A DNA stretch of 64,000 bases. Source: Bacilli bacterium. GTDB taxonomy: Bacteria; Bacillota_I; Bacilli_A; RF39; UBA660. Under the pieces are notes generated by a model that saw only the letters and a list, made by a program, of their open reading frames with translations, did not search any database and was not told the DNA's origin. This document shows positions 6,267 through 57,265 of the stretch, one piece after another. Every line of letters starts with the position of its first letter. Within the stretch, counting starts at the first letter, position 1. The stretch spans positions 74,920 to 138,919 of the forward strand of contig JAFRQS010000011.1 of the NCBI GenBank assembly GCA_017428495.1, read 5' to 3'. Position numbers and translations under genes: made by a program.

Positions 6267-6274
6267 ACTTCCTC

Positions 6275-6847: not shown

Positions 6848-6895
6848 TACTTATCACAATACAATTTTAACACTTTATTTTATATTTTAATAGCA

Positions 6896-7522
6896 TTATT
6901 TGTATAATATTATAATTCTTCTTCCTTTAACATCAATAAACCCTTCATCTTTTAAATTTTTTAACTCCCTACTCATAGCACTTCTATCTACTGCTAAGTA
7001 ACTGGCTAAATCTTTTAAATAAAATGGTAAATATATATTTTTTGAACCCGTTTTATTAAATTCTATATTTAAGTATGCAAGAATTTTTTCTCTTATTGTT
7101 TTTTTACTAATTATTTCTATTCTTTTATTTCTTTCTTTTATTTTTTCATTAAGTATTACATACATGTTTTTAATAAATTGATTAAAATACTCATTATTAT
7201 TAGATAAATTTAAAATAATATAATCATAATCAAATATAATTACTCTAGTATTATCTTCTTTTATTGAAATATCATCTTCTTCTCTTACTTTTTCATTTAT
7301 TACAAATACATCATTTTCATATATTTCATCTATAATATTTGTATTACCTTCTAAATCCATTTTTGATATTTCGATTGAACCTTTTTCAACTATACCAATA
7401 ATATTATAATTTCTATATCTTTTAGTAAGCGATATTCCCCTATTTAAATTCAGTACTTGTGCTTCTAATAGTTTTAATAATTTTATCTTATTTTTACTAC
7501 TTATATTATCAAATGGATTCAT
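6896..7522 (-). CDS. Crp/Fnr-family transcriptional regulator
   Basis: cNMP-binding-like N-terminus and C-terminal HTH (LASYLAVDRSAMSRELKNLKDEGFI). Start moved from ORF-track 7579 to ATG 7522 (MNPFDNISS), which has RBS AGGTGTA 5 nt upstream. Confidence 0.7.
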   Translation of the reverse strand: MNPFDNISSKNKIKLLKLLEAQVLNLNRGISLTKRYRNYNIIGIVEKGSIEISKMDLEGNTNIIDEIYENDVFVINEKVREEDDISIKEDNTRVIIFDYDYIILNLSNNNEYFNQFIKNMYVILNEKIKERNKRIEIISKKTIREKILAYLNIEFNKTGSKNIYLPFYLKDLASYLAVDRSAMSRELKNLKDEGFIDVKGRRIIILYK

Positions 7523-9782: not shown

Positions 9783-10282
9783 TGAAATATAATAAAATAA
9801 GAAAAATGGATATTTCTAATGGCCCTGGTATAAGAGTTTCAATATTCTTTCAAGGATGTAGATTTCATTGTAAAAACTGTTTCAATCCTGAAACTTGGAG
9901 TTTTAATGATGGTAATGATTTTACTGATGAAACAATTGAAAAAATTTTAGAACTTGCCGACAAGCCTGAAATAATGGGATTATCAATGCTTGGTGGAGAG
10001 CCTATGAATGATATAAATATTGTGGGTTCAACTAAATTAGCAAAAACATTTAAAGAAAAATTTCCAAATAAAACAATATGGTCATGGTCTGGTTATTTAT
10101 TTGATGATTTAAAAGATAAAGAAATTATAAATTACTTAGATGTATTAGTTGATGGTCAATACAAAGATGAACTTAGAAATCCAACTTTAAGATGGAGAGG
10201 TTCTGAAAATCAAAGAGTTATTGATATAAAAAAAACATTAAAAAAAGGAGAAATTATCTCCTATAAAGATGAAGAATATTAA
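9782..10282 (+). CDS. nrdG: anaerobic ribonucleotide reductase activating protein (radical SAM), NrdG
   Basis: 166 aa; radical-SAM cluster CRFHCKNC; start overlaps nrdD stop (TAATG). Confidence 0.85.
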   Translation: MKYNKIRKMDISNGPGIRVSIFFQGCRFHCKNCFNPETWSFNDGNDFTDETIEKILELADKPEIMGLSMLGGEPMNDINIVGSTKLAKTFKEKFPNKTIWSWSGYLFDDLKDKEIINYLDVLVDGQYKDELRNPTLRWRGSENQRVIDIKKTLKKGEIISYKDEEY

Positions 10283-10297
10283 TCTTCATCTTTTTTT
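10268..10297 (+). terminator. rho-independent terminator for nrdDG whose hairpin contains the stop codons of both convergent genes
   Basis: GATGAAGA-ATATTAA-TCTTCATC (8-bp stem, 7-nt loop) followed by TTTTTTT; nrdG TAA lies in the loop, the minus-strand gene's TGA in the 3' stem arm. Confidence 0.55.
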
Positions 10298-11389
10298 AAC
10301 TAAAACAAGTGGTACTTCAGTTTCATCAGTAGTATTTCCAGCATGACTAGATACTGCTTCTACTTTACCCTCTTTTCGTTTATATTTTATACTTAAATTT
10401 TTATTACTAATTGATATAAAATCTCCGATACAACTATCAAAATATGGATGATTATTCCCAGTACCAAATAAGTTATATTCAAATATTTGATTTCTATCAA
10501 GTAATATAAAATTATCATCAAATTCTTTAGTAAATCTATCTTTAAAATAATCATTCATACCATCTTTTATAAAATACATTGCACTTCTTGAATCAATTGA
10601 GGTAGTTCTTTCTAGACATTCAAATAATTCTGGATAATCTTCCAAATATACTATTCTCTGCTTCATATGACCATGATCTGCAATTATAATAACCAAAGTA
10701 TCTTCTAATCCATTACACAATCTTTCTAATTCAAAATTAATCATATTAATTTCTTCAACTACTTCTTTAGAATCAGCACCATATAAATGCATATATGTAT
10801 CTGGGTTTTCATAATAGGCATATATGTAATTTCTATCTTTTTTATTTAAATTTTGTTTAATTTTATTACACATATCATGAAAATCTTCATATCCAATATC
10901 TCCATATAATGATATATATGCCGCATAATATTTGCCTTCTTTATTTATTCTATCCATAATAGTTTGATATGGCATATATTTTTGACATATATTTTCATCA
11001 AAATGTATATCAGTATCTTTTATTTTGTTTTGATACATTATAACTACATTATTAACATCTTTTATATATATTTCCCATCCCAACCAACAATGTTCATTTG
11101 GATTTAAGCCTGTCATTACACTTGTAGTAGCAGCTGTAGTAGTTGGAGGAAATACGCTTGATATTGGCTCTTTGATATGACTAACTAAGAAAGAGTCTTT
11201 ATCTAATGTTCTATTTAATATATTGTATCCCATACCATCGCATAATATTAATACTACATTTTTGGGATTACTAGATAAGGCATCATCTAATGAATCCAAA
11301 GTATTGTGAAAAGGTTCTATTCCAAAATATTTTGATATAGAACTTGCTAAATTAGTAAGGCATTTATTATAATCAATATTTATTTTCAT
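10286..11389 (-). CDS. alkaline-phosphatase-superfamily protein (type I phosphodiesterase/nucleotide pyrophosphatase-like)
   Basis: 367 aa; metal-ligand-like motifs LILCDGMGYN and IIADHGHM characteristic of AlkP/ENPP-type core. Confidence 0.5.
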   Translation of the reverse strand: MKINIDYNKCLTNLASSISKYFGIEPFHNTLDSLDDALSSNPKNVVLILCDGMGYNILNRTLDKDSFLVSHIKEPISSVFPPTTTAATTSVMTGLNPNEHCWLGWEIYIKDVNNVVIMYQNKIKDTDIHFDENICQKYMPYQTIMDRINKEGKYYAAYISLYGDIGYEDFHDMCNKIKQNLNKKDRNYIYAYYENPDTYMHLYGADSKEVVEEINMINFELERLCNGLEDTLVIIIADHGHMKQRIVYLEDYPELFECLERTTSIDSRSAMYFIKDGMNDYFKDRFTKEFDDNFILLDRNQIFEYNLFGTGNNHPYFDSCIGDFISISNKNLSIKYKRKEGKVEAVSSHAGNTTDETEVPLVLVKKR

Positions 11390-11422
11390 GATTCCCCCCC
11401 CTTAAAGTAAATATTATTATAT

Positions 11423-11453
11423 AAAAAAAGATATTGAAAAACAATATCTTTTT
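11423..11453 (-). terminator. rho-independent terminator downstream of ppaC
   Basis: AAGATATTG-AAAAA-CAATATCTT hairpin flanked by A-run (plus) / T-run (minus). Confidence 0.5.
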
Positions 11454-11466
11454 AGAATATTAGCTA

Positions 11467-13116
11467 TTACTGCATTTCTAATATTTCCATTATTGGTGGA
11501 AGCATCTGCTTTTTTCTTGACATAATCGAAGGTATAAACATTCCTTCATATATTTCTTTTAAATTAAATGCATTCATTATTATTTCTTTTGCCCTAGTAT
11601 TATATATTACATATGATCCTTTTTTAAATATATCAGTAATAAATATAACATTTACACCAGGCGTAACACTATTTAGTTCATCTAATTTGTTTACATATTC
11701 ATCAATATTATTATTTATTTTCTCAAAATCCATAGTAATAAGTTGGCTAATACCTAAATGTAATTTACCAACTGTATATGATTTATAATCTTCATATATT
11801 TGTTCATTTACAGTTAATTTATCAATAGAAGATGATGCCTTTAACATTTTATAACCATACTCATTTATATCAATATTTATTATATTTGCAAGCTTATTAG
11901 CAGCATCAATATCATCATCAGTAGTACTTGGAGATGTAAATAATAATGTGTCAGAAATTATTGCAGAAAGCAATAAACCAGCAATATTTTGTGGTATTTC
12001 AATATTCTTTTCTACAAACATTTTATAAATTATTGTAGAAGTACATCCCACAGTCATACACCTAAAATTTATTGGAGTTTTAGTACCAATCATTCCTAAA
12101 TTATGATGATCAATAATTTCCATAACAATTGCCTCTTCAATTCCTTCAACTGATTGTTCATAATTATTATGATCTACTAATATGACTTTTTTTCTTTCAA
12201 ATTCATTAGATAAATTAGTTTGAATAACGCCTAAACATTCTTTCTTTTTATTTACAATCGGATAATTTGTATGTTTTGTTTTTTTAGCTAACAATTGAAA
12301 TTCATCATAATAATCATCATCATAAACTGTAATTGGATTATCACATGTATTAATACTAATAGTATAATTACTTAATCGTATCATATTAGCAATTTCATAA
12401 CTTGTCATTTTACTTCTAATTATAGTTACACTATTAACCTTAGCTTTTTCAATTAACTCCTCATCTATTACACTATTTATAGCTAATATAATTAATTTTA
12501 CTTTAGAATTAATTGCTTGCTCTAATATTTTATATCTATTACCTACAATAAGTATATCACTATAATCTAATAAAATCTCATCCTGTAAATTACTACTTTG
12601 ATTATTAATTATTACCATTCTACCATCAATAATATCATTGTATTTAGTAAGTAACTCAGCATTTAAAATATTTATAATGTTGTTTAATGAAGTATGAATG
12701 CTATCCTTATTACCTTCAATTAAAAATCTTGCAACATCTTTCATAGATAAAAAACCAGTAATTTTTCTATTATTATTCACAATTGGTATAGCAGTTATTT
12801 CAAAATTTTGCATTGTTAAATAAGCATTATATATCGAATCATTTTCATTTACATATGCTTTTTTTCTATAATGTATATCTCTTATTCTAATTTTTACATC
12901 ATTTAAATATTGTGGTTCTGGGATATTAAAGTATTTTAATACAAATTTTGTTTCATTATTTAAATGACCAATAGCCCTAGGCACAGTCTTTTCACCTAGA
13001 GCATTTTTTAAATATGACAACGCTATACATGAACAAATACTATCAGTATCTGGATTTCTATGTCCAAATATCAATGTATTCATTATACCCCTCCTTAAAC
13101 TCAAAAGATTATACAA
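11467..13116 (-). CDS. ppaC: CBS-domain-containing family II (Mn-dependent, DHH-DHHA2) inorganic pyrophosphatase
   Basis: 549 aa; DHH motif region LIFGHRNPDTDSICS, tandem CBS pair in the middle, DHHA2 C-terminus. Confidence 0.75.
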   Translation of the reverse strand: MYNLLSLRRGIMNTLIFGHRNPDTDSICSCIALSYLKNALGEKTVPRAIGHLNNETKFVLKYFNIPEPQYLNDVKIRIRDIHYRKKAYVNENDSIYNAYLTMQNFEITAIPIVNNNRKITGFLSMKDVARFLIEGNKDSIHTSLNNIINILNAELLTKYNDIIDGRMVIINNQSSNLQDEILLDYSDILIVGNRYKILEQAINSKVKLIILAINSVIDEELIEKAKVNSVTIIRSKMTSYEIANMIRLSNYTISINTCDNPITVYDDDYYDEFQLLAKKTKHTNYPIVNKKKECLGVIQTNLSNEFERKKVILVDHNNYEQSVEGIEEAIVMEIIDHHNLGMIGTKTPINFRCMTVGCTSTIIYKMFVEKNIEIPQNIAGLLLSAIISDTLLFTSPSTTDDDIDAANKLANIINIDINEYGYKMLKASSSIDKLTVNEQIYEDYKSYTVGKLHLGISQLITMDFEKINNNIDEYVNKLDELNSVTPGVNVIFITDIFKKGSYVIYNTRAKEIIMNAFNLKEIYEGMFIPSIMSRKKQMLPPIMEILEMQ

Positions 13117-16393: not shown

Positions 16394-17639
16394 TTTTGCT
16401 TCCTTTCAAAAAATAAATGCTTGATATATATATTTTATTAGCTAATGCTTCTACATCTTTAGATGTAACCTTATTATAATTTAACACCTTTTTATTAATA
16501 GGATCTGCATTAAAAACTTCTATACCATAATAATAATTAATAATACTTGCTGGACTATCTAAAAGTGTTTCAATTGATGACAATATTTCTTTTCTAGCTG
16601 TTTCAACCTCTAAATCTTTAACATTTTTAAGATTAATTTCTTCTTTTATAAGATTTACTACAGTATCATAATTTTCCTCATCAATACCAGAACTTATCAT
16701 TAAAATTGAATTTGGACTGTTATTCATAGCACCAATTGAATAAGCTAAAGAATTTTTTTCTCTTACATTAACAAATAATCTAGATGTAGAGCCCGCACCC
16801 AAAATTGAAGTATATATTGGCAACACATATCTTCTCTCAAATAAGCTTAAATTTAGTACTTTACATATTATTGCTAATTTAGATTGACTTATATCCATAA
16901 CTTCAGATTTAGATTTTAATTTTGGTACCTGTTTATATGTTATAAATGGATCAACATCAATTGCTCTATTATTTTTAAATTTAAATTTAGACTCAATATA
17001 TCTTAATACCTCATTCTTATTCACATTACCAACTACAAATATATCAATTATATTAGTATCTAATACATGTTTATAGTATTCATATAATGATTTTTCTGTA
17101 ATATTATATAAATCTTTTTTATACCCCCACATATTAAATGATATTGGATCCATATTATCCATCAATTCTAAAGCTTTATTTAATGTATATTTTTGTGTAT
17201 TCTCTTTAGATGATTTAATTATTAAATTCAATTTATCTTTTACTATATTAAAATTTTTAGATTCAAATTCATTATTAACAACATTAGGATTAAATAATAT
17301 TTCAAATAATAAATCTATAGAATTATATAACAATCTCTCATCACTATATTTTTTATATAAAAATCTAATATCAATATAACTATTTATATAATTTCCAAAC
17401 TTTATATTAGAATGTGATAAACTTAAAGAATATAAATCTTCTAATTTAATTTCAAACAATCTAGAAGTATTATATTTTAATGTTGTACTAGTAAGCATTT
17501 GAAACAAAAATTTTCTTATTGTTATATCCTCTTTTTTTACTTTTTCTCTAAAATTAATAGAAATTGTTGTTGTCTTAAATTTATTAGTAGTTATAAAATG
17601 CACATTATATATACCATTATTTATTTTGCAGTATTTCAT
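16374..17639 (-). CDS. M16-family peptidase-like partner subunit (no HxxEH motif)
   Basis: M16 C-terminal domain-like organisation, lacks HxxEH; probable real start at MKYCKINNG (17639) rather than ORF-track 17675. Confidence 0.6.
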   Translation of the reverse strand: MKYCKINNGIYNVHFITTNKFKTTTISINFREKVKKEDITIRKFLFQMLTSTTLKYNTSRLFEIKLEDLYSLSLSHSNIKFGNYINSYIDIRFLYKKYSDERLLYNSIDLLFEILFNPNVVNNEFESKNFNIVKDKLNLIIKSSKENTQKYTLNKALELMDNMDPISFNMWGYKKDLYNITEKSLYEYYKHVLDTNIIDIFVVGNVNKNEVLRYIESKFKFKNNRAIDVDPFITYKQVPKLKSKSEVMDISQSKLAIICKVLNLSLFERRYVLPIYTSILGAGSTSRLFVNVREKNSLAYSIGAMNNSPNSILMISSGIDEENYDTVVNLIKEEINLKNVKDLEVETARKEILSSIETLLDSPASIINYYYGIEVFNADPINKKVLNYNKVTSKDVEALANKIYISSIYFLKGSKNGKDEN

Positions 17640-32100: not shown

Positions 32101-33342
32101 TTAACTGCCCGAAGTAGTGCATGAACTACCTGCACACCAATTTGTAACCCCATTACTTGTAATATGACATCTAGCCTCATTCCACCACTCAGTAGGAACG
32201 TGGCAATATACATCACCATTAGTACATTTCCATATTTCGCCACCTTGTGCATATCTGCAATTAGACTCACCAAATACTTGAGTTGCATGATTAAGATTAT
32301 CAGCTGAATATTTATTAGAAAAACAATTTATATCTGAATCTCCATTACCTCTATATAATATACATATTTCAGGGTCATCATTCCTAGTAAATTCGGTTGT
32401 ATCTCCAGGCCATCTTATAAATACATTTTTATTTAATAAAGAGTAATCTGCTACAGCAGTATTTGATCTTGTAACAAAACTATCAAAAGCATTATCACTT
32501 CGCGTAAGAAATGAAGTCATTTCATCATATACATATGTACCAGTATTTATTCTATCTCCAAAGTATAAACTAGTGCTCTCATTACTACCATCTTCCCATA
32601 TATCATTACTATTACTACATACCTTTGTCGCATGGGAATCATCTTCTGGATATATTTCATCATTGATATCATAACCTAAATCATTATATAATATCCAATT
32701 TTTACATGCAGTCTGATTAGTTACTGTATATGTATAACCCATCCAATAATTATCCATTAAAAATTGTGATGCACTATAATTGGTACCTATATCAGAACTA
32801 TTAGTACATACATTATTTGAATATAATGTTGCATCTGTATCAGTTTCTCCCCATGAAACAAATAGTGACTTTATAGCTGGTTTACATAATGTCTCATTAG
32901 TTACTGCATATACTAAAGAATATTCAAATGTATATAAATATTCTGGGGCATTTGGATCGCCTTGTGTACAACTTATACTATCTTTTGTACCACTACATTT
33001 TATTCCTGCAAATTTACTTCCACTTGCTCCTTTTAATTTTACTGTTGCGACTCCATTTAAATTATATGTAATTGTACAACTTGAATAATTGTCATTTAAT
33101 TTTGCAACATCAGTACATGGTATACTTGTTTCATCATAATTTGGATTTATAGCTTGTTGAGCCAAATAATCTTTTTCTGCATTTGTTGCTATTAATCTTG
33201 CGCTACTTTCCATACTCTTTAATCTTGATTCTTGTATTGTATTCATTATTTGTGGTATTGCTATTATAAGTATTACTGCTAATATTACTATTACTGCTAA
33301 TAACTCTACCAATGTAAAGGCTTTCTTCTTATTCTTTTTCAT
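32101..33342 (-). CDS. large prepilin-type N-terminal domain protein (type IV pilin-like), Cys-rich, two ~65-aa internal modules; paralog of 37115-38830
   Basis: 413 aa; class III leader MKKNKKKA/FTLVELLAVIVILAVILIIAIPQIM (Glu at +5, Ala at -1); first ~130 aa and last ~80 aa conserved with the 571-aa paralog, variable modular middle (Y[AT]VTN..C....[IV]K ... K[IV]C[ST]N repeated). Confidence 0.75.
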   Translation of the reverse strand: MKKNKKKAFTLVELLAVIVILAVILIIAIPQIMNTIQESRLKSMESSARLIATNAEKDYLAQQAINPNYDETSIPCTDVAKLNDNYSSCTITYNLNGVATVKLKGASGSKFAGIKCSGTKDSISCTQGDPNAPEYLYTFEYSLVYAVTNETLCKPAIKSLFVSWGETDTDATLYSNNVCTNSSDIGTNYSASQFLMDNYWMGYTYTVTNQTACKNWILYNDLGYDINDEIYPEDDSHATKVCSNSNDIWEDGSNESTSLYFGDRINTGTYVYDEMTSFLTRSDNAFDSFVTRSNTAVADYSLLNKNVFIRWPGDTTEFTRNDDPEICILYRGNGDSDINCFSNKYSADNLNHATQVFGESNCRYAQGGEIWKCTNGDVYCHVPTEWWNEARCHITSNGVTNWCAGSSCTTSGS

Positions 33343-34163: not shown

Positions 34164-34352
34164 CTACTTAGATGCTTCTTCTTTTGATAATACTTTTTTG
34201 CCCTTATAATATCCACATTCAGTACATACTCTATGTGGTCTTATAATAGCTCCACAATTAGAACACTTAGTTGTACCATTTTCTTCTATTTTATAATGAG
34301 TACGACGCATTCTTTTTCTTGTTTTACTTACTTTTCTAAATGGAACTGCCAT
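34164..34352 (-). CDS. rpmF: 50S ribosomal protein L32
   Basis: 62 aa; MAVPFRKVSKTRKRMRRTH and 4-Cys zinc ribbon. Confidence 0.85.
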   Translation of the reverse strand: MAVPFRKVSKTRKRMRRTHYKIEENGTTKCSNCGAIIRPHRVCTECGYYKGKKVLSKEEASK

Positions 34353-37114: not shown

Positions 37115-38830
37115 TTAGCTTATCCATTCACCGCATCCACCATTTATATTACATTCTTTTCCAGAATGATATCCTTCTTGGCAATAAAATTCATTACCAC
37201 TAGATAAACTTGTTCTATTAACACGGCACCTAAAACGCCTTCCTCCAGTATTTTGTTCACATACAATTGTATTATTCCATTCAGCAATAACATTGCAGTT
37301 ACTTTCCCCAAATACATTCTTCAATTGATCATCAATTGTATTATCAAAAGTAAAACAATTAAAATCATTATTAGTATTACCTTTATATTTAATGCAAACA
37401 GCTTTATCAGTTGTAGAATCAAATTCATCAGTATCTCCAGGCCATCTTATAAATACAATAGAATTAATATCATTAGGATTTGTATAAGTTTCAGTACCTT
37501 GATATACTCTAGTTGAGAATTGATTATATGCATTTTCCCTATTTAAAAATGCATATAAATTGTATTCATTACCAATACTGTCAGCAAACCATTCACTTGT
37601 TGTTAAAACTATACCTCCAGTATCATATCCATTACCATTACAAACACTAGTAGCAATTGCATTTGCCTCACTTTCTAAATAGCCCCATTTATTTATATAA
37701 TCATCTTTTATTTTAGTTTCACACTCCGATTTATTAGTCACTATATAATTATATAAGTATCTTTCATTATCAATAAACCAATCATCAGCTGTAGATTCTG
37801 TATATTCATCAATATTATTAGTATTGCTACATATTTTTTGAGCACTTAATTCAGCGCTTGAAACATCGTAGTTAAAGTTATTTATCAAATCTCCTTTCAC
37901 AAATGTTTTACAAGCGTTTGCATCAGTTACAGTATATAAATCTACTCCATCAGTTGTAGTTTTAGTTGTAAATGAACTTATACTAGAACTGCTAATACCA
38001 TTGCTAGACACTCCTGTAAAAAACCAATCACTTGTAGTAGTATATCTTATTGTATCTAAATTATTACATACTTTATAAGCTGTTGAAGCAGCATAATAAT
38101 CAGGTTCTCCATTATTCATTTCTTTTTGTTTAATAAATGGTAAACAACTTGATTTGTTAGTTACAGTATAGAAATCAGCACCATAGCGATTTATTTTACT
38201 TACAAAAGAACTTATTTCTGAATAAGTAAATAATCCATTTGCAATTGATTCATCAATATAATCAGATGCTGTAAAAGCTAGGCTTGATTTTGTGCATATT
38301 TTATAAGCATCTGAAGTAAGTCGATAATTACTTTTGTTATAATGCAATTCTTCAATTCTTTTTACAGCATTAACACAATTTGCTTCATTTGTTATTGTAT
38401 ATGTATATAATTCTCTAGGAATTCCAAATGAATACACATATTCTGATACATTATCTCTCTGTATACAATTCATTTCATCTTTTGTACCTGTACATGTTAT
38501 TCCTGCAAACTTACTGCCACTTGCTCCTTTTAATTTTATTGTTGCTGTGCCATTACTATTATATGTAATTGTACAACTCGAATAATCATCATTTAATTTT
38601 GCAACATCAGTACATGGTATACTTGTTGCATTATAATTTTGATTTACTGCTTGCTGACTTAAATAGTCTTTTTCTGCATTTGTTGCTATTAGTTTTGCAC
38701 TACTTTCCATACTTTTTAATCTTGTAGATTTAATTGTATTCATTATTTGTGGTATTGCTATTATTAGTATTACTGCTAATATTACTATTACTGCTAATAA
38801 TTCTACTAATGTAAATCCTTTCTTTTTCAT
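37115..38830 (-). CDS. large prepilin-type N-terminal domain protein (type IV pilin-like), Cys-rich, four ~65-aa internal modules; paralog of 32101-33342
   Basis: 571 aa; canonical class III leader MKKKG/FTLVELLAVIVILAVILIIAIPQIM; four repeats of TVTN..C...IK / KIC.N modules; conserved C-terminal block IVFIRWPGDTDEF...VFGESNC shared with the paralog. Confidence 0.75.
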   Translation of the reverse strand: MKKKGFTLVELLAVIVILAVILIIAIPQIMNTIKSTRLKSMESSAKLIATNAEKDYLSQQAVNQNYNATSIPCTDVAKLNDDYSSCTITYNSNGTATIKLKGASGSKFAGITCTGTKDEMNCIQRDNVSEYVYSFGIPRELYTYTITNEANCVNAVKRIEELHYNKSNYRLTSDAYKICTKSSLAFTASDYIDESIANGLFTYSEISSFVSKINRYGADFYTVTNKSSCLPFIKQKEMNNGEPDYYAASTAYKVCNNLDTIRYTTTSDWFFTGVSSNGISSSSISSFTTKTTTDGVDLYTVTDANACKTFVKGDLINNFNYDVSSAELSAQKICSNTNNIDEYTESTADDWFIDNERYLYNYIVTNKSECETKIKDDYINKWGYLESEANAIATSVCNGNGYDTGGIVLTTSEWFADSIGNEYNLYAFLNRENAYNQFSTRVYQGTETYTNPNDINSIVFIRWPGDTDEFDSTTDKAVCIKYKGNTNNDFNCFTFDNTIDDQLKNVFGESNCNVIAEWNNTIVCEQNTGGRRFRCRVNRTSLSSGNEFYCQEGYHSGKECNINGGCGEWIS

Positions 38831-48802: not shown

Positions 48803-49657
48803 TTATTCATTTTCCTTAATTTCTACTTTAGTATTAGCAGAATCTTCTAATAATTTTGGATTATCAAATATATACTGCAATATTTTAGCAGATTTAACAA
48901 AATAATAACCATCTGCTATTCTCTCATCAAAATTCATACCAAATTCACATAATTTTCTTATCTCTTTTTTACCATTTACTATTACTTCTTCATCTTTAAT
49001 TTCTCCCATAGTCACAAGTGAAGAACATGTTCCAAAGTTTGTTATATTATGGTATATAGCACCACATTTTATACTACCTAAATTAGATACCATCATACTA
49101 CTATAATATACATTGTCACTTACTAAACTCTTAGGAAGCATTCCATTTTTATCAAACCATTTTAATATACCAACTACTGGTACTCTTATTATATTAGGAA
49201 GTTTACCTAATATATCAATTGCACTATTTGCGCCTTCTTTTTTAGATTTTTTATTTCTAAAGCCACTTACCTTTTCCATTATTTTTTTACTAATTGATTC
49301 CAAATTATCATTTTCATTTATTGGAATCATAATCATAACCTCTTCACTCTTATCATCAAAAGAAACTTTAGCAACAAAACTTATAACAACATCATTATGT
49401 TCATAAACATGTCTATTAGCAATAAATCTATTTAATTTTGGTCTATTATATAAAGTTTTACCAATAGCAGTTACAAATGTATGAAAATATGTAATATCAC
49501 TACCATTCTTTTTCTTATTATTTACATATTTAACAAGTTCTGTAACATCCATCTTCTGATTTATATATACATCACTATCACATCTTTGTGGTTTTAAATC
49601 AACAAGTATTTGTTCCATACCACCTAAATTTCTAATTCTTTTCGCATCTTTCCTCAT
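48803..49657 (-). CDS. 2-oxoacid dehydrogenase E2 acyltransferase catalytic-domain-like protein, no lipoyl domain, active-site DHRxxDG replaced by DERIADG
   Basis: 284 aa; hand alignment with E2 catalytic domains (ITYFHTFVTAIGKTL / MVSNLGSI..GAIY / FGMNFDERIADGYYF vs canonical LSFDHRVIDGA). Confidence 0.55.
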   Translation of the reverse strand: MRKDAKRIRNLGGMEQILVDLKPQRCDSDVYINQKMDVTELVKYVNNKKKNGSDITYFHTFVTAIGKTLYNRPKLNRFIANRHVYEHNDVVISFVAKVSFDDKSEEVMIMIPINENDNLESISKKIMEKVSGFRNKKSKKEGANSAIDILGKLPNIIRVPVVGILKWFDKNGMLPKSLVSDNVYYSSMMVSNLGSIKCGAIYHNITNFGTCSSLVTMGEIKDEEVIVNGKKEIRKLCEFGMNFDERIADGYYFVKSAKILQYIFDNPKLLEDSANTKVEIKENE

Positions 49658-49835: not shown

Positions 49836-49866
49836 AAAAAAAAGAATTATTATTTAAATAATTCTT
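49836..49866 (-). terminator. rho-independent terminator at end of the 5-gene surface-protein cluster
   Basis: AAGAATTATT-ATTTA-AATAATTCTT hairpin overlapping the stop of the 313-aa gene with A/T runs. Confidence 0.5.
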
Positions 49867-50779
49867 TATCATAAAAGCCTTTAAATTTAATTTTACTTTT
49901 ATCATTAAATGTTATAACTATAATATTATTTTCCAACTCACTTATATTAGATACATACTTATTATATTTCTTAATAGTATCACCTTCAACATATAACATT
50001 TCATTATCTGAGGTTATAATAAATTCAGTAGGAACATTTTTAAATCCACTAATATTATTACCCATACCAACTAATATAATATTTTTAACTTTAACATCTT
50101 TATTATCCTTTTTAAATACTTCACCATTAATTTTAGATATTGACATATCAGAATATAATATATATTCATTATTTATGTACATCATATCTTTATCATAAGG
50201 AAATAAGGTATATACATCATACAATTTGTTTTTTGCGGTTAATACTACAAAACTCATATGATTTATATTAATGTAACTTTTTACTTTTAAATTTGTAAAA
50301 TTAACAATTTTTTCATTGGGAATATCAATTTTATTGATATATAACTCATTTAAATTGTCATTATTCAACACAAACTTATATAAATTTCCATCTTCAGTTA
50401 TGCCAAAAGCATTTAATCCTTTTTCGAAAAACATACTAGCATCATATAATGTATTAAATTTTACATTCTCAAGTACTTCCTTATTACTTGAATTCAAACT
50501 TATATGTAAATGCTTTTCATCATCAATATACAATTTGCCAACATTATTATCATTAATAACAGTAAATTCAATTTTATTGATGACATTATAAAATATATTA
50601 TCTTTATAAGACTCATTATATTCAATTGAATTAATGTGTTTTATTCCCTCATACTGAAAAGTAAAACTTTTAGAATCACTTTTATCAGATTTCATAAATT
50701 TGTAATATGATAAGTATCCTACAAATACTAAAAACATTATAACAAATACAATCAACACTATCCTTAACTTTTTATTCAT
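49850..50779 (-). CDS. membrane-anchored hypothetical protein (N-terminal TM, extracytoplasmic body)
   Basis: about 309 aa from MNKKLRIVLIVFVIMFLVFVGYL; RBS GGGTGATTAT upstream. Confidence 0.55.
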   Translation of the reverse strand: MNKKLRIVLIVFVIMFLVFVGYLSYYKFMKSDKSDSKSFTFQYEGIKHINSIEYNESYKDNIFYNVINKIEFTVINDNNVGKLYIDDEKHLHISLNSSNKEVLENVKFNTLYDASMFFEKGLNAFGITEDGNLYKFVLNNDNLNELYINKIDIPNEKIVNFTNLKVKSYININHMSFVVLTAKNKLYDVYTLFPYDKDMMYINNEYILYSDMSISKINGEVFKKDNKDVKVKNIILVGMGNNISGFKNVPTEFIITSDNEMLYVEGDTIKKYNKYVSNISELENNIIVITFNDKSKIKFKGFYDKELFK

Positions 50780-50802
50780 ATAATCACCCATTACTTTATA
50801 TC

Positions 50803-51657
50803 TTAACCCATTTTCTTAACAGAGGCTTCTTTAGCCATATTTAATTCTTCTGTAGTAACTCTCATTGATTCAGGAATCCAATTTAAATATATATGTACCA
50901 TATCATTGTGAGAGTAATAACCTCTTCCACCTTCTTTTCCAAATGGAAAAAACTCAAACATATATTCATCTTCTTCATTTGTTAATTCTCTATCATAATA
51001 TTCAATCCAAAAATTGGCCGCCATAACAACGTTATCTACCAAACGTAGTTGTATATCATTGTTACAAAAATATGGATGAATACCTTCAAACTCTACTACT
51101 TCATGATTCATAGCATTCCAAGTTAATGGTCCAAAATCTTCACCTGTAGTGTGATAAGTAAATAATTCCTCATTAGTAAATAAATCCTTAAATTTATATA
51201 TATTTTCATTTGGAGTATTATATACATATCCAAACATTACTTTTGGTTTACCTTCAATGAAGAAACAAGCTGAGAAATAAAGATTTGAATCATTTATTTC
51301 ATCGTCATCATATGTTTCATATTTTTTCATTTCTTCAGCTTCTTCTTCTTCTGAAAGTCTTTTAAATACCAATTCACTTGAATCATCAATAACTGGTTCT
51401 TCATTAATTTCAATATTTTCATTTTCAACAATTGGTTCTATAGTTGGTTGTGGAGTAGGTTCTGGGGTTGCTTTAATAATAGGATCAACGGATGGAGAAG
51501 GTATAACAGTTTCAATAGGTGTTACCGTTTCCTCTATAATATCCGTTTTATCTAAAGAATAATTGTCACATCCAACTAAAATACTAGATGCCAATAATAC
51601 TGCTGCAATTTGCGTTGCTATTTTGCCATTATACTTATTATTTCTCTGTAATTTCAT
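50803..51657 (-). CDS. hypothetical lipoprotein with Pro/Thr-rich linker
   Basis: 284 aa; lipobox SSILVGC; linker TPIETVIPSPSVDPIIKATPEPTPQPTIEPI. Confidence 0.55.
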   Translation of the reverse strand: MKLQRNNKYNGKIATQIAAVLLASSILVGCDNYSLDKTDIIEETVTPIETVIPSPSVDPIIKATPEPTPQPTIEPIVENENIEINEEPVIDDSSELVFKRLSEEEEAEEMKKYETYDDDEINDSNLYFSACFFIEGKPKVMFGYVYNTPNENIYKFKDLFTNEELFTYHTTGEDFGPLTWNAMNHEVVEFEGIHPYFCNNDIQLRLVDNVVMAANFWIEYYDRELTNEEDEYMFEFFPFGKEGGRGYYSHNDMVHIYLNWIPESMRVTTEELNMAKEASVKKMG

Positions 51658-51719: not shown

Positions 51720-54071
51720 TTAACAACCTCCTGTTTCTGTATACGTAGCTGTAACAATGTCTTCTCGTTTTGAAGGATCTGCATAATATGAGACTCTTGT
51801 AAAAACGCAGTGTGTTTCTGTTGTTATAGTTCTCTGATGATTAGAACATATACCTTTTTTTACTGTATAATATGTACTACCTATATAACGTATATTTTTT
51901 TCATTTTTAGAGCAATTAGTCTCATGCCAACATGTTTTATAACCACATTGAATTGCATCTGCTTTATTTTCACAAGCTGTGCATGAATCCGCCCCACAAG
52001 AATCACATGCATTATAGCCACATATACTAGCATCTGTTACATCACCACACCATGCACACGTATTATATTCTATACATTTGTTTTTATTATTTGGATCATA
52101 TTTTTTGCAACCGCATGCTCCACAACTCCTAGGCTTACATGTAGCTGCACCACATCTTGAACATTTTTTATATCCACAATGTTCCACATCATTTCCATAA
52201 AATTCACACACCTCACATGTATCCGCACCACAACTCCAATGTTCACTTTTAACCCTATCGCAGTCTGGTTTTTGCACTTCTTCATTAAAATCATAGTGAC
52301 ATGATTCACCATTGTAACTACTTGAAGTTCCAGGGCCATCATCTGGAGGTTGAGTTTCACAATCTGATTTATAGCATCCTTGTCCATCACCTGTTGCTGA
52401 TGCAACCTGTCCATCTCCACAAGTTGCTTGTGATTTAGCTGTTTCTTCACTTGAATATGGATAATCTCCTGAACATACACAATCTACTTTATAACATCCT
52501 TCTCCATTATTAGAACATTGTTTTACTTGATTTGATGATGAACATGATATTGAATTCTTTGCATCATCTTCACTTATATGTGGATAGCTTGCTGGACATG
52601 CTTTTCCTTTTACAATTAATGTACAAGTACCAGTTTTTGTAGAATCCACTTTTGATGTTACTGTTACTGTTATTTTTTGATCTATTGGTGATAATCCATT
52701 ATTTCCTTTAACTTCTCCTGTTTCTTCATTTATTGTTGCATATGTTGTATCTGATAAACTCCATTTTACATCAGTCTTTGTAGAATTCTTTGGTGTATAA
52801 ACTTTCTCCATTTGCCCTATACCATTATATTCTATCTCTAAATTTTTACATCCTAATGTTTCAGGTATTCCATCCCATACTGTTACTTTACATGTTGATG
52901 TCTGTCCTCTTGTTGTTTTTACCCTTATTGTTACTTCCTTTGTACCTGTTATATTCTGCGCTGTTATTTGTGCCTTTGATAAACAATTCGAATTTGTATT
53001 ATTTAACTCACATGTTTCTGGTGGGTTTGAATATTGTATTGTTAAAGCACTTGGATCGCTACTTGTCCATTCCAACTTTCTATTTGCTGCATTTGCAGGT
53101 ACATATTGTGGATGTAATGTTACTTTTGTTCCAGAAGCTATTTTTATTCCTTCTGCTGGACATACAACATAACTTGAATTATCTGCACTTGGTTCATTTG
53201 GGTTTGTTTCTGGACTTAAATCATTTGGATTCTTTGGTACCAATACTTCTATATCTGTTGTACATACTTGTTTTCTTACTCTTTCTTTTATACTTTCATT
53301 TATTGTTCTTACATCTGTACTTTCACTAAATGTCCATGTATAAATATATTCATTACCTGATGATACTGGATTTGCTGTTACTATTCTTGTCTTTTCACTA
53401 CTCCATTTTCCACATTCACATATTGCATATCTTGCTGTTCTTTCTTTATCTCTTGGGGCTTCCTCATCTTGACATATTCCTATTGGTAAATTTGATTCTC
53501 CCCATCCTAAAAAGCTTATATCTCCTGGTATACAATCCATCTCTTCATCTGATATGTCTGATGCACACCTATTCTCTCCACTTGATGAATCTATTTCTAC
53601 TTTTGTTCCAAACTCTTGTCTTATTGTATTACATTCTTCTGCTGTCTTATCTTCACACAAAAAATCTATTACTTCATCTATTTTATATTTTGTCTCTATA
53701 ACACCATCTACTCGATTTACTAATCCAAATTCTTCTCCTCTTAATGATGTTACTCCACTTCTTATTCTTAATGATATCTTAGGTGGTACTTCATTTAAAT
53801 CTTCTACTATTATCTTATAGTCACCTATTGTTACATTTTGAGCAAATCTTCTTGTTAAATTCTCTATAAATTTATCTTCTGCTATTTTCATGTTTCCTGT
53901 TGTTCTATAATATTGCAAATCTATTGCATCATATGCTGCCGCTTGTGTTGTTTCTTTTATTAAATAATATACTCTATCATTATCTACTGTTACATTTTGA
54001 AATAAATTTACTACTAATATTCCAAATAATCCTAGTACTACTATTAGTACTCCCCATATCGCTTCTTTCAT
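51720..54071 (-). CDS. large surface protein: N-terminal membrane anchor, two Big_2-like Ig domains, C-terminal Cys-rich CGY-x2-C repeat region
   Basis: 783 aa; N-term hydrophobic MKEAIWGVLIVVLGLFGILVVNLF; Big_2-like segments (VVCPAEGIKIASGTKVTLHPQYVPANAANRKLEWTSSDPSALTIQ; KVYTPKNSTKTDVKWSLSDTTYATINEETGEVKG); C-terminal about 150 aa with about 35 Cys including HCGYKKCSRCG, ICGYNACDSCG, QCGYKTCWHETNC. Confidence 0.6.
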   Translation of the reverse strand: MKEAIWGVLIVVLGLFGILVVNLFQNVTVDNDRVYYLIKETTQAAAYDAIDLQYYRTTGNMKIAEDKFIENLTRRFAQNVTIGDYKIIVEDLNEVPPKISLRIRSGVTSLRGEEFGLVNRVDGVIETKYKIDEVIDFLCEDKTAEECNTIRQEFGTKVEIDSSSGENRCASDISDEEMDCIPGDISFLGWGESNLPIGICQDEEAPRDKERTARYAICECGKWSSEKTRIVTANPVSSGNEYIYTWTFSESTDVRTINESIKERVRKQVCTTDIEVLVPKNPNDLSPETNPNEPSADNSSYVVCPAEGIKIASGTKVTLHPQYVPANAANRKLEWTSSDPSALTIQYSNPPETCELNNTNSNCLSKAQITAQNITGTKEVTIRVKTTRGQTSTCKVTVWDGIPETLGCKNLEIEYNGIGQMEKVYTPKNSTKTDVKWSLSDTTYATINEETGEVKGNNGLSPIDQKITVTVTSKVDSTKTGTCTLIVKGKACPASYPHISEDDAKNSISCSSSNQVKQCSNNGEGCYKVDCVCSGDYPYSSEETAKSQATCGDGQVASATGDGQGCYKSDCETQPPDDGPGTSSSYNGESCHYDFNEEVQKPDCDRVKSEHWSCGADTCEVCEFYGNDVEHCGYKKCSRCGAATCKPRSCGACGCKKYDPNNKNKCIEYNTCAWCGDVTDASICGYNACDSCGADSCTACENKADAIQCGYKTCWHETNCSKNEKNIRYIGSTYYTVKKGICSNHQRTITTETHCVFTRVSYYADPSKREDIVTATYTETGGC

Positions 54072-54075
54072 ATTA

Positions 54076-55362
54076 TCACTTCCTATCTATGATATCTGGA
54101 TTTGCAATAATAAATTTGCTCTTATTCATCTCATTAATATTAAATGTATCATAAGGATGATTTTTATTATACTCTCTTACTCTTCCTATTTTACTTCTAT
54201 CTAAAGTTATAACAAATCTTTCCATTGTTGATAAATTACTACTAGTAGAAGTTATATATTTATTTACTAATGTCTTTCCATCTGGAGTAAGACCACTCCA
54301 GTTAGCTGAAGGCTCTCTATTTGGAAATGGATTATTAACATCAATTATTCTATATTGAAATGCCTGGCCACCATATTTATCATAATTTTCATCTGTTTCT
54401 GAACCTGGTTTTGTCACAGGGAATGATAAATTTTTTACTTTATATGAACAATTTACATTTAAATTCCATACATCTCCACCTGCTATTAAATTATTACCTA
54501 AATTTCTAGCAGTTAATACTAATGAATATCCTCTATCAGTAGGATCTGATGCAACTGGCCTTGTATACTCATTAAATGATGTAAAATACTTATCTCCAGC
54601 ATTACACCTATCATATCTATATGTAGATTCTATATTTCCAGTATTTAACTCCAAAAATGTATCAGCCATTGTGTATTTACCATTTAACATAACTGTTTCA
54701 TTCCAACTTTTAATTGTTTTATTACTAAGTTTACAATCATAAGTCGCTTCATCAAAATTACATGCCATAGGAGTTACATTTATCTCATCCATATCTACAA
54801 CTTTTGAATATTCACCCATTTGAGAAAAATGATAAGGAATAGTTTCTACATTCTGAGAAGTAGATACATTTAACTCTACATTTCCATTAAATTTATACTT
54901 ATGAATATTTGATTCATCATCTGATGTAAATTCATCACAAGCTTTTTTATTTTCATAATAATTAACTATTTCTCTTCTTTTGGTTTCTTTTTCTTCACCT
55001 GATAAACTTTTATATTCATTTACCAATTCTTTTATTTTAGATTCATATTGAGTATATTTATATTCAGCAGTACAATTTCTCTTTCCACTAGCATATAATG
55101 GATAATTAAAACCAGTTCCTGCTAATACTCTTTTTATAGGATCAACTGAAAACAATATTTCTTCTTTACATTTAATAGTACAAACATCATTTTTTAGTAC
55201 TTCAATTTCATTCTCAGTTCTAAATGTAGTAACCGTACTTTTACTTGCATCACATGTAATCTCTCTACTATTTGTATTAACCGTATTTATAACTGGATCA
55301 CATGTAGCAGCAAAAGTTACAACTGGTAACAATAACGCAAATAATAATAATTTCTTTTTCAT
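54076..55362 (-). CDS. secreted Cys-containing hypothetical protein
   Basis: 428 aa; signal peptide MKKKLLLFALLLPVVTFAA; 4-nt gap/overlap coupling to flanking genes. Confidence 0.55.
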   Translation of the reverse strand: MKKKLLLFALLLPVVTFAATCDPVINTVNTNSREITCDASKSTVTTFRTENEIEVLKNDVCTIKCKEEILFSVDPIKRVLAGTGFNYPLYASGKRNCTAEYKYTQYESKIKELVNEYKSLSGEEKETKRREIVNYYENKKACDEFTSDDESNIHKYKFNGNVELNVSTSQNVETIPYHFSQMGEYSKVVDMDEINVTPMACNFDEATYDCKLSNKTIKSWNETVMLNGKYTMADTFLELNTGNIESTYRYDRCNAGDKYFTSFNEYTRPVASDPTDRGYSLVLTARNLGNNLIAGGDVWNLNVNCSYKVKNLSFPVTKPGSETDENYDKYGGQAFQYRIIDVNNPFPNREPSANWSGLTPDGKTLVNKYITSTSSNLSTMERFVITLDRSKIGRVREYNKNHPYDTFNINEMNKSKFIIANPDIIDRK

Positions 55363-56021
55363 AATATACCTCGATTCTTTGACCTTCTTTTCATAATTAT
55401 TCTTAATAAAACCAATAATATAATTGTTAAACTAACAATTATCAAATGTCTATGTTCATATATATATCCAAGCACATCTATATTGGTTTCATCATTCTCT
55501 TGTGGTTTAATTTCTGTTTCTTCTCTTTTATTTAAACTTTCTATATACTCATTCATCTTTTTTTCAAATTCTTTTTCACTCAAATTAACATTAGAATTTT
55601 CTTTACATAAAAAGTAATTTTCATATCCTTTGCACAAATCACTTTTTGAATATTTATTATAATATGGAACATTTATTACCTTTGTAAGTATTTTATATCC
55701 TTCACAATAATTATTATTGGATGCATATATTATAACTTGTATTTTACTTCCAGGTGTTAATCCATCAATAACATTACTTGAGTATTTTTTTCCATTACTA
55801 TCTGCCAAATACATATGCTTTGTTATATTGTAAAATATCACTTTATATGTAACTTTATCATTTTCAATATTTTTACTAAGTCTATATACAACATCATTAG
55901 CATCACTTCTAAGTGCTGTTTTAAAGCTATTTGTACATCTTGAATCTATTACATCATATTTTGCTAATGTAGTAATTGGTATAAATAGTAACATTAATAG
56001 CAAATAACGCAATTTCTTCAA
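55359..56021 (-). CDS. type I membrane protein (signal peptide, about 150-aa ectodomain, C-terminal TM and basic tail)
   Basis: 220 aa; N-term MKKLRYLLLMLLFIPITTLA, C-term LIIVSLTIILLVLLRIIMKRRSKNRGIL. Confidence 0.55.
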   Translation of the reverse strand: MKKLRYLLLMLLFIPITTLAKYDVIDSRCTNSFKTALRSDANDVVYRLSKNIENDKVTYKVIFYNITKHMYLADSNGKKYSSNVIDGLTPGSKIQVIIYASNNNYCEGYKILTKVINVPYYNKYSKSDLCKGYENYFLCKENSNVNLSEKEFEKKMNEYIESLNKREETEIKPQENDETNIDVLGYIYEHRHLIIVSLTIILLVLLRIIMKRRSKNRGIL

Positions 56022-56157: not shown

Positions 56158-56643
56158 ATGAAAAAGAATAAAGTAGCATGGCTTTTACCATTCATAGTAA
56201 TTATTATATTGAGAAGTTGTAATGCTATAAGAGAACAAGAGACTGGCGAAACTAGATATCAAAGATATCAAAGATATAAAGCTGGAACAACAAGTAGCCA
56301 AATGTATAATAATGATTATACTGAGTGCAAAACAATGGCATACTATGAAGATAAAACTAAGGATAGTTTTTATGCAGTTATGGATTACGCCTGTTTAAAA
56401 GAAGGATATCCACTATATGATTGGTATAAAGATGATATGAATGTAAAAGGATATTGCGAAAAAGATCAAATAGTATATGTGGAATCAACTAATGGTGAAT
56501 ATGCGCATGTATTTACTGATAAGAATATAGATGGTTATATACCTACCAGTATTTTAGAATATATACATAAGGAATATTTAGAACAAGATATATCAGAACC
56601 ATCTGTAAAAGTTCTCAAAAAACAAAAACTAGGAAATTCCTAG
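56158..56643 (+). CDS. secreted/membrane-anchored protein with C-terminal bacterial SH3-like domain (paralog 1)
   Basis: 161 aa; N-terminal hydrophobic anchor; C-terminal FYAVMDYACLKEGYPLYDWYKDDMNVKGYCEKDQIVYVESTNGEYAHVFTDKNIDGYIPTSILEYI. Confidence 0.6.
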   Translation: MKKNKVAWLLPFIVIIILRSCNAIREQETGETRYQRYQRYKAGTTSSQMYNNDYTECKTMAYYEDKTKDSFYAVMDYACLKEGYPLYDWYKDDMNVKGYCEKDQIVYVESTNGEYAHVFTDKNIDGYIPTSILEYIHKEYLEQDISEPSVKVLKKQKLGNS

Positions 56644-56719: not shown

Positions 56720-57265
56720 ATGAAAAAGAGGAAATCAAAAGGAAATGGTGCAAAAGCATTATTAATGGCATTTTTAGTTGTACTTGTAGTAAGAGGTTGT
56801 ATAATAGATAGCCAAAAACAACCACATAGTTCAACAAGCAGCAGAACAAATGATGATTCATACAGTAGTGATACTACAATAAGACAATATCAACCTACTA
56901 CATATTATTTAAAAGATGGTACTCCAATTGAATCATCAACAGGTTATGTACCTGAAGGATATGTATATAATGGAACATATTTAATACCTAAAGAATCTGG
57001 TGACAACTTTTATGCAGTTAGAGAATATGCATGCTTAAAAGAGAGTTATCCATTATATGATTGGTATAGAGATGATATGTGCGTAATAGGATATTGCGAA
57101 AAAAATCAAATAGTATATGTAAGTTCAACAAATGGTGATTATTCACATGTATTTACTAGCGATAATGTAGATGGTTACATACCTAATAGTATGTTAGAAT
57201 ACGTACCAGAAGAATATTTAGATCAAGACATATCAGAACAATTTGTAAAAGTACTTAAAAGATAA
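56720..57265 (+). CDS. secreted/membrane-anchored protein with C-terminal bacterial SH3-like domain (paralog 2)
   Basis: 181 aa; FYAVREYACLKESYPLYDWYRDDMCVIGYCEKNQIVYVSSTNGDYSHVFTSDNVDGYIPNSMLEYV nearly identical domain to paralog 1. Confidence 0.6.
   Translation: MKKRKSKGNGAKALLMAFLVVLVVRGCIIDSQKQPHSSTSSRTNDDSYSSDTTIRQYQPTTYYLKDGTPIESSTGYVPEGYVYNGTYLIPKESGDNFYAVREYACLKESYPLYDWYRDDMCVIGYCEKNQIVYVSSTNGDYSHVFTSDNVDGYIPNSMLEYVPEEYLDQDISEQFVKVLKR

Follow-up and report, generated by a model that had tools for sequence, protein, structure and literature searches.

A cysteine-rich, variable insert in the terminal domain of a modular DUF5411-family surface protein from a Bacilli bacterium

We analyzed a 64-kb stretch of contig JAFRQS010000011.1 from a Bacilli bacterium (hereafter the window, 64,000 nucleotides in all), in which an open reading frame (ORF) at 51720..54071 on the minus strand encodes a 783-residue, DUF5411-family surface protein with 49 cysteines and a stretch of CGY repeats. 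This protein is referred to as Q, its homologs by P-numbers and the loci of these homologs by L-numbers; all parts of Q described below are encoded on the minus strand. An earlier note, made from the DNA letters, had presented Q as a Big_2 protein. The ORF and the two Ig-like domains behind that name are correct, but DUF5411 is the better family name: residues 1-129 (53685..54071) match the Pfam profile PF17424 (DUF5411) with E 1.6e-37 and a score of 128.8 bits, where the cutoff is 30. This part begins with MKEAxWG, continues as a hydrophobic helix and ends in a small beta sheet, and an AlphaFold2 (AF2) model built on a 50-sequence alignment places the helix at residues 2-48 and the strands at 84-124. 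Residues M1, E3, W6 and G7 are invariant. We infer that the DUF5411 domain of Q is a pilin-like anchor, and export through Sec is assumed because Q has an N-terminal hydrophobic signal-anchor and no evident twin-arginine motif. A conserved, beta-rich middle domain follows at residues 130-300 (53172..53684), as modeled by AF2, with invariant C169, C180, C200, C218, C220 and C270. Two Ig-like domains of the Big_2 type at residues 301-489 (52605..53171) form the stalk; they match Big_2 (PF02368) above its gathering score and have the Ig-like beta sandwich.

Beyond the stalk, residues 490-571 (52359..52604) form two tandem units of ~41 residues with the pattern CPxxYPxxSExxAKxxxxC...GxGCYKxDC and four conserved cysteines each, termed GCY units here; unit 1 holds an additional, non-conserved C519. 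In an AF2 model of residues 481-783 (8-sequence alignment), each unit is a short helix plus a hairpin with predicted local distance difference test (pLDDT) scores >90. No Pfam family matches residues 490-571, and GCY units are also found in P0001, P0002, P0004, P0005 and P0006. The motifs CYKVDC (residues 526-531), CSGDYPYSSEETAKSQATCGDGQ (533-555) and CYKSDC (566-571) fall within these units at window positions ~52359-52494; the earlier note had read the motifs correctly, but had placed them inside 51720-52200, which they lie outside. A Pro/Gly/Ser-rich linker at residues 572-585 (52317..52358), where pLDDT falls, leads into the tip domain. The first strands of this domain occupy residues 586-603 (52263..52316; model positions 101-129, pLDDT 69-81) and contain C591, and its remainder at residues 721-783 (51723..51911) is again modeled as strands (pLDDT 76-86) and contains C742, C755 and the C-terminal C783. 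Between the two lies the core of our finding, a Cys-rich insert of residues 604-720 (51912..52262) with 22 cysteines.

The insert consists of ~8-residue units of the form C-G-[YA]-x-x-C-x-x, with six CxxC motifs and five C-x4-C-x2-C triads. All three CGY-x2-C-x2-C motifs that had first drawn attention to the region are present: HCGYKKCSRCG at residues 631-641, ICGYNACDSCG at 683-693 and QCGYKTCWHETNC at 708-720. The repeat region starts at residue 604 (window position 52262) rather than at 52200, and a count of about 35 cysteines in the last ~150 residues proved too high, as the last 160 residues (624-783) hold 21 and 36 fall within the last 301 (483-783). Residues 591-720 contain 23 cysteines within 130 residues (17.7%), against 1.5% for the long ORFs of the window. 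Composition-preserving shuffles give p = 5e-5 for the five occurrences of C-x4-C-x2-C and p < 5e-5 for the seven of CGxxxC. The GC content of the Cys-rich region, 0.33-0.40 against 0.17-0.31 elsewhere, is elevated as first noticed: the rise falls mainly on codon positions 1-2 and therefore reflects amino-acid composition, with a small rise at third codon positions (0.18 against 0.11). At the DNA level, Tandem Repeats Finder detected no tandem repeat in the Cys-rich region; therefore the repeats are either old or exist at the protein level, with no ongoing simple slippage.

The stretch of Cys-rich repeats interrupts the terminal sheet domain as an insert. This placement follows from the AF2 secondary structure, in which long beta strands at residues 581-609 and 714-781 (pLDDT 70-86) make up one terminal sheet domain, and from the relatives P0006, P0026 and P0020, in which the same tip flanks (GxC...E, then V-x-Y-x-G ... 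YC..R..YY.NP ... C) enclose inserts with 0, 2 and 6 cysteines, respectively. The GxC...E flank retained in these three proteins corresponds to residues 586-603 of Q. The tip module as a whole recurs in P0002-6, P0020, P0026 and P0030.

Divergence from the closest allele, P0001 (encoded in L008), was measured by Nei-Gojobori counting on this one close pair. Residues 1-603 are 98% identical, with a ratio of non-synonymous to synonymous substitution rates (dN/dS) of 0.16. The insert is 67% identical and differs in addition by a 25-residue indel, with dN 0.219, dS 0.159 and dN/dS 1.38. Residues 721-783 are 94% identical and have zero synonymous differences, so that no dN/dS can be given; over the C-terminal 198 residues of Q, P0001 is ~80% identical, although a word-index homolog search with these residues alone retrieved nothing, an outcome that we put down to the search tool. 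The insert departs in its non-synonymous:synonymous ratio from the remainder of the gene (Fisher p = 9e-6). Within the aligned insert 18 of 18 cysteines are kept and the non-Cys sites are 59.5% identical, and the indel takes away exactly 4 Cys.

A search with the full-length protein returned 84 homologs, all of which share residues 1-~490 (62-63% coverage) and differ in their C-terminal parts. CGY-type repeats occur in five of them only, P0001 (91% identity), P0002 (72%), P0004 (51%), P0005 and P0030 (41%), and the number and arrangement of the units differ among these five. The repeats of P0030 are CG[YF]xxC-xxEA units. Residues ~790-850 of P0005 carry CGYNANATL / CGYNTSATL units in perfect tandem, with many N-x-T/S sequons, along with AAGAAxC units, at one Cys per 8 residues; the perfect tandem units indicate a recent unit expansion, and the sequons are possibly glycosylation sites. 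The tails of the other homologs are composed of different Cys-rich modules, Gly/Ser- or Pro-rich linkers or extra Ig domains, and about half of the long DUF5411 homologs end in a HINT/intein-like domain (CFLAGT...ILVHN). Absence of the motif from orthologs had been named beforehand as an outcome that would count against a special module. The result is mixed: the five closest relatives have the motif and the remaining ~79 members do not, because the C-terminal part as a whole is a hypervariable cassette that can be swapped.

The breakpoints between shared and unshared sequence are sharp. P0003 is ~96% identical to Q up to residue ~390 and then 10-45%, with extra Big_2 domains and a different Cys-rich head, and P0028 is ~97% identical up to residue ~210 and then unrelated. 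Such a mosaic resembles the outcome of recombination that swaps heads among near-identical strains. Silent donor cassettes for the tail were not found in the window by tblastn.

Searches with profiles and folds recovered no ordinary known fold or family for the module. For the isolated modules the only Pfam result at E<=10 was DUF5555, a noise-level match with E 0.11, and residues 591-726 had none; an NCBIfam scan of the modules gave no match; a PDB sequence search with the C-terminal 296 residues returned only noise (E>=0.07); and the best Foldseek hit against the PDB had E 2.4. A HMMER profile of the insert plus tip domain, run against 1.84 billion representative proteins, retrieved the P0001 cluster, the P0030 cluster and one 53-residue fragment only, so that the insert family comprises two 50%-identity clusters among these representatives. 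The insert module is thus essentially an orphan limited to the lineage of Q. A scan of one genome per species with an alignment as query located the wider family in uncultured gut and rumen metagenome-assembled genomes (MAGs) labelled Erysipelotrichaceae, Bacilli, Mollicutes or "Clostridium sp.", with a few loci under other labels; a scan with the single Q protein as query found no relatives. Three loci from MAGs labelled Muribaculaceae (L013, L015 and L016) encode DUF5411 proteins of 1015-1224 residues with 34-48 cysteines and many xxCY-type repeats (GKCYVAADL, GDCYYTV). These labels look unreliable; GCY-type modules are, on this evidence, a wider theme of the DUF5411 family.

Variability of this kind might also be expected of a passive, disulfide-rich spacer or low-constraint filler, in which the repeats add length or rigidity and the differences reflect relaxed constraint and replication slippage. 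The copy number and length of the repeats vary freely in relatives, from 0 to ~170 residues, the insert is wholly missing from P0006, AF2 confidence for it is low, and a dN/dS of ~1.4 from a single pair agrees statistically with neutral evolution (~1). We consider this explanation unlikely, however, since the insert is found at the distal end, within the terminal domain and not between the anchor and a functional domain, and since its cysteines are strictly constrained (18/18). Complete C-terminal heads are furthermore exchanged between near-identical alleles, as is typical of selected interaction surfaces, and the lack of a DNA-level tandem repeat argues against ongoing simple slippage.

The earlier note had left the cysteines between a metal-binding and a disulfide module, and had called the region unusual for a Firmicute surface protein. 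That it is an extracellular, very Cys-dense and patterned module is supported by the present analysis, and most Firmicutes indeed exclude cysteine from exported proteins (Daniels et al., PMC2823432). Bacteria that oxidise their exported proteins place cysteines in even numbers, and an even bias is an accepted disulfide signature (PMC2823432). In ten variants of the tip module the Cys counts are 26, 22, 24, 22, 30, 32, 10, 6, 4 and 14, all of them even. Alignment-anchored counts of tail cysteines in 49 homologs are even in 23 of the 25 tails without HINT and odd in 22 of the 24 with HINT; the odd counts fit an arrangement with all other cysteines paired, because the catalytic HINT Cys stays single. 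The loss of exactly 4 Cys through the indel between Q and P0001 is likewise in keeping with pairing. The other very Cys-rich exported proteins of the window have even counts as well, namely 16 and 20 in two prepilins and 10 in a 428-residue partner; an even-Cys test over all putative exported ORFs of the window was too small and noisy, and only the very Cys-rich ones are cited. Pairing by disulfides is therefore the side that parity favors, and on these counts we would favor it over metal binding.

The alternative is an extracellular metal-binding array, in which pairs of CxxCG knuckles would make up Zn(Cys)4 sites resembling those of zinc ribbons or rubredoxin and so stabilise the loop in the reducing gut, an environment in which disulfides would not be stable. 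Of the six CxxC motifs in the insert, four have a Gly next to them, a feature of the CPxCG zinc knuckle. A tblastn search of the Q tail against the window gave a single, weak match, the zinc ribbon of ribosomal protein L32 (CSNCG...CTECGYY, 34203-34289, minus strand, E 0.013), although this resemblance is at the motif level only. The indel between Q and P0001 removes one complement of four cysteines, and the host lineage consists of gut and rumen Firmicute MAGs, mostly without Dsb systems (PMC2823432). With the four core cysteines subtracted, however, the inserts of the ten variants hold 22, 18, 20, 18, 26, 28, 6, 2, 0 and 10 cysteines, only three of the ten counts being divisible by 4, and P0005 swaps in single-Cys CGYNANATL or AAGAAxC units without CxxC. 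Insert counts that are mostly not multiples of four, together with single-Cys units replacing CxxC units, argue against a purely Zn(Cys)4 array. Profiles of zinc ribbons, the DnaJ cysteine-rich domain (DnaJ-CR) and metallothioneins gave no match even at E<=10; for the zinc ribbon in particular, neither Pfam at E<=10 (residues 591-726) nor the PDB yielded a profile or fold match. In the GCY units next to the insert and in the tip core, the 4 and 4 cysteines have a spacing that is clearly not that of knuckles, and each unit of the insert has a conserved Tyr. A conserved aromatic Tyr is atypical for metallothioneins. We regard the metal-binding array as quite unlikely, while a subset of the CxxCG knuckles could bind zinc.

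Some other identities were set aside. The region is not a metallothionein, given the conserved Tyr in CGY, its position within a 783-residue exported protein and the absence of a profile match. An Fe-S cluster or a peptide modified by a radical SAM enzyme (rSAM) was dropped because the Cx4Cx2C spacing is neither a ferredoxin nor an rSAM motif; an rSAM-modified peptide and a target of a diversity-generating retroelement (DGR) were likewise dropped, no rSAM or reverse-transcriptase family being found among the neighbouring genes scanned. An origin as a phage tail fibre was ruled out, as PHROGs match the Ig domains only.

We propose, with modest confidence, that residues 604-720 form a disulfide-stapled hypervariable loop with a binding or antigenic role at the tip of a stalk protein. 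The structural part of this proposal, a paired-Cys hypervariable insert, is likely; a binding or antigenic function of the insert is tentative and stands somewhat short of even. The stalk protein, composed of the DUF5411 anchor, the beta domain, two Ig-like domains and two GCY mini-domains, would be membrane-anchored or pilin-like. The C-G-Y-x-x-C-x-x units would be closed by disulfides, probably as local C-x4-C rings or as ladders that link neighbours. A unit of this sort would stand by itself, so that units could be added, dropped or rewritten while the Cys framework stays. The exposed residues between the cysteines would then make up a rapidly diversifying distal face, perhaps displayed at the surface on a pilus-like fibre. 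Through this face the protein may bind a ligand or receptor or serve in evasion, for example in adhesion to host glycans or mucus, in recognition by phage or antibodies, or in cell-cell contact. The apparatus would be encoded by a conserved cassette of 4-5 genes, which in relatives stands inside pilus loci of the Tad type (CpaB/CpaF).

Several points weigh against this proposal. The AF2 model has pLDDT ~30 at residues 616-712, so that the insert is without confident structure and the model gives no disulfide map. The dN/dS >1 of the insert rests on a single close pair and is not statistically established; dS in the insert is also raised about twofold, and therefore recombination may contribute to its divergence. 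The total of the Q tail is odd, 35 cysteines after C483, through the non-conserved C519 (also present in P0001), and even parity in the variants is compatible with a mix of Zn(Cys)4 sites and disulfides. Firmicutes of the gut and rumen anaerobe type are usually without Dsb systems (PMC2823432), and a pattern search of the 64-kb window for the thioredoxin-type motif C[PGS][HYPSAT]C, which was not a family scan, hit the target ORF only and gave no candidate oxidoreductase. Finally, the gene has neither a Tad ATPase gene nor platform genes next to it in the window.

The gene is located in an island of the division and cell-wall cluster, between ftsI-mraY-ftsW and murC. The local order is a 220-residue protein, a 428-residue secreted protein, the 783-residue protein, a 284-residue lipoprotein, a 313-residue anchored protein, a 2-oxoacid_dh-like gene and a 119-residue prepilin. 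The two upstream partners (54076..56021, minus) are the 220-residue protein, with a signal peptide, a C-terminal transmembrane segment and 4 Cys, and the 428-residue secreted protein with 10 Cys; counterparts of both, 44-55% identical, lie next to the DUF5411 genes of L005 and L007. The downstream partners (49850..51657, minus) are the 284-residue lipoprotein and the 313-residue membrane-anchored protein, and in L005, L006 and L007 the genes that immediately follow the DUF5411 genes encode proteins 26-33% identical to the latter. The cassette of the 220-residue, 428-residue, DUF5411 and 313-residue genes thus recurs in other loci at 26-55% identity. The identical 783-residue protein is present on 7 metagenome contigs, and the window as such matches a metagenome scaffold. 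On one contig with the identical gene, L004 (1-1323), the genes ahead of it are different, with no 428-residue or 220-residue partner in the 1.3 kb upstream, a difference that hints at a strain-level rearrangement or at an assembly difference.

Genes of the Tad type are found beside this cassette in relatives. In L005, whose DUF5411 protein (P0030) carries CGY repeats, RcpC/CpaB-like and T2SSE (CpaF-like) genes follow directly after the cassette. Stand-alone DUF5411 proteins of 117-231 residues exist (L017-L020, L022-L027), and one such gene, at 5992-6417 of L018, lies directly upstream of genes for an RcpC/CpaB-like protein and a T2SSE (CpaF-like) ATPase; stand-alone versions of 117-170 residues sit beside CpaB/CpaF-like genes. 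The position in L018 suggests that DUF5411 supplies a Tad-like apparatus with a component the size of a pilin. A gene-embedding study likewise places DUF5411 in predicted operons of Clostridia that resemble type IV pilus and type II secretion system (T2SS) operons (PMC9523054). A pilin-like role of Q is plausible, if unproven, given the invariant M1/E3/W6/G7 and the long helix and small sheet of the AF2 model. The N_methyl/TIGR02532 prepilin motif has no match in Q, whereas the 119-residue and 413-residue neighbours do match it; the invariant MKEAxWG with its final Gly is only suggestive of such a signal. The DUF5411 profile found no pilin or other relative among PDB sequences. Two small genes of L005, at 17016-17213 (65 residues) and 17237-17626 (129 residues), start with MKEASGE... 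and MREAIGG... and continue with a hydrophobic helix, as does the MKEAFWG of DUF5411; M[KR]EAxxG could represent a short leader that these proteins have in common and that ends in Gly, in effect an unconventional class III-like signal. The window also contains two paralogous N_methyl prepilins on the minus strand, at 32101-33342 (413 residues, 16 Cys) and 37115-38830 (571 residues, 20 Cys), both with Cys-rich C-termini. Pilus proteins of the source organism are generally Cys-rich, with even counts.

The HINT domains of the family are found, among others, in P0006, P0007, P0009, P0016, P0017, P0021-23, P0045-47 and P0053, and in L006 at 10001-12577 and L007 at 4692-6974 and 10001-12211. Only 2-6 residues follow the final HN. 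HINT is usually the last domain and is therefore terminal as in Hedgehog, with no toxin after it; this position, together with the odd Cys counts, suggests that the Cys-rich head may be autoprocessed or covalently transferred. A wider interpretation, which we also hold to be quite unlikely, makes the family a polymorphic head-swapping system not described before, with the CGY insert as one type of head. DUF5411 proteins would be modular pilins of a Gram-positive Tad-type apparatus, with the leader cleaved after the Gly of MKEAxWG. An arms race with host, phage or competitors would drive the exchange and diversification of their distal Cys-rich heads, and in about half of the family a terminal HINT domain would process these heads or transfer them covalently; the CxxCG insert could then be a Zn-knuckle scaffold, rather than a disulfide one, for the reducing gut lumen.

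Very unlikely, in our assessment, is a polymorphic-toxin or bacteriocin-like effector, in which the C-terminus would be a delivered, Cys-rich toxin with its immunity encoded downstream: the mosaic of a conserved N-terminus with a variable C-terminus and the PT-HINT/Hint/Intein_splicing domains in about half of the homologs recall polymorphic toxins, but Q has no HINT domain, that of its relatives is usually final, with just 2-6 residues beyond ...VHN, and toxin families do not match Q (Pfam, including E<=10 on the modules, and NCBIfam). Neither a HINT-then-toxin order nor a covarying immunity gene downstream was found for Q, and the 313-residue gene that does follow is conserved across loci with different heads, unlike an immunity gene.

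The disulfide-stapled loop that we propose has analogues in several known systems. The memberships that hold for Q are DUF5411 and Big_2 only, and they cover its N-terminal two-thirds. By function, the closest analogues of the remainder would be Cys-framework variable surface proteins and disulfide-rich hypervariable peptides; by architecture, they would be modular pilins and polymorphic C-terminal cassette proteins. Hypervariability on a Cys framework has its other known examples in protist surface antigens and animal toxins. Like the variant-specific surface proteins (VSPs) of Giardia and ciliate surface antigens, the insert is extracellular and Cys-rich with frequent CxxC, and it has an invariant Cys framework with hypervariable sequence between. 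Giardia VSPs carry CXXC and GGCY, and their CXXC is reported to bind Zn. Q shares with them G-x-G-C-Y (GEGCYK and GQGCYK, residues 523-571) and allelic or cassette diversity, but it is bacterial, has an 8-residue CG[YA]xxCxx unit and is anchored by an N-terminal DUF5411 domain where VSPs have a C-terminal transmembrane segment; zinc binding, reported for VSPs, is disfavored by parity for the insert of Q. Pfam profiles of Giardia VSPs and furin-like domains do not match the modules of Q even at E<=10. Conotoxin and defensin peptides and the Tenebrio antifreeze beta-helix resemble the insert in an invariant Cys frame, fast non-synonymous change and a short regular Cys period, whereas the insert belongs to a 783-residue anchored protein and has a period of 8 residues rather than 12. 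With the zinc ribbon and rubredoxin (L32) the insert has CxxCG and the local CTECGYY match in common, but it is a tandem, extracellular, Sec-exported array with cysteines not in fours, no profile match and CxxC-less units in relatives.

A modular type IV pilin or Tad pseudopilin carries a functional domain grafted C-terminally onto its pilin module. DUF5411 is similar in its short conserved N-terminus ending in Gly, its modeled long hydrophobic helix and small sheet, its ~130-residue stand-alone forms and the CpaB/CpaF loci of relatives; Q differs from type IV pilins in having no N_methyl/GFxxxE motif, no Glu at +5 after the putative cleavage site and no relative in the PDB. PT-HINT polymorphic toxins are matched by the DUF5411 family in the conserved N-terminal delivery part, the recombining C-termini and HINT in about half of the members, but Q is without HINT, the HINT of relatives is mostly terminal and not pre-toxin, and the downstream partner is conserved.

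What is new here is a lineage-restricted form of a known kind of module, the Cys-scaffolded, hypervariable surface module, in a wider family with head swapping, terminal HINT and Tad linkage. An uncultured Firmicute lineage of the gut and rumen would carry surface or pilus-associated proteins with dozens of paired cysteines and employ a Cys framework to support very fast sequence diversification on top of a conserved stalk, although Firmicutes are regarded as "cysteine excluders" where exported proteins are concerned. If the function is confirmed, this would be a Gram-positive, pilus-locus-linked case of Cys-framework hypervariability and a determinant of strain-level specificity in the gut microbiota, acting in adhesion, as a phage receptor or in immune evasion, and it would imply a capacity for oxidative folding in these bacteria.

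Two further features of the window lie near the cassette. Two small, divergently oriented, paralogous lipoprotein-like genes at 56158-56643 and 56720-57265 (both plus strand) share YACLKE.YPLYDWY..DM.V.GYCEK and have no family match. Between the cassette and the 119-residue prepilin, a 284-residue protein at 48803-49657 (minus) matches only the C-terminal part of the 2-oxoacid dehydrogenase acyltransferase domain, with E 2e-13.

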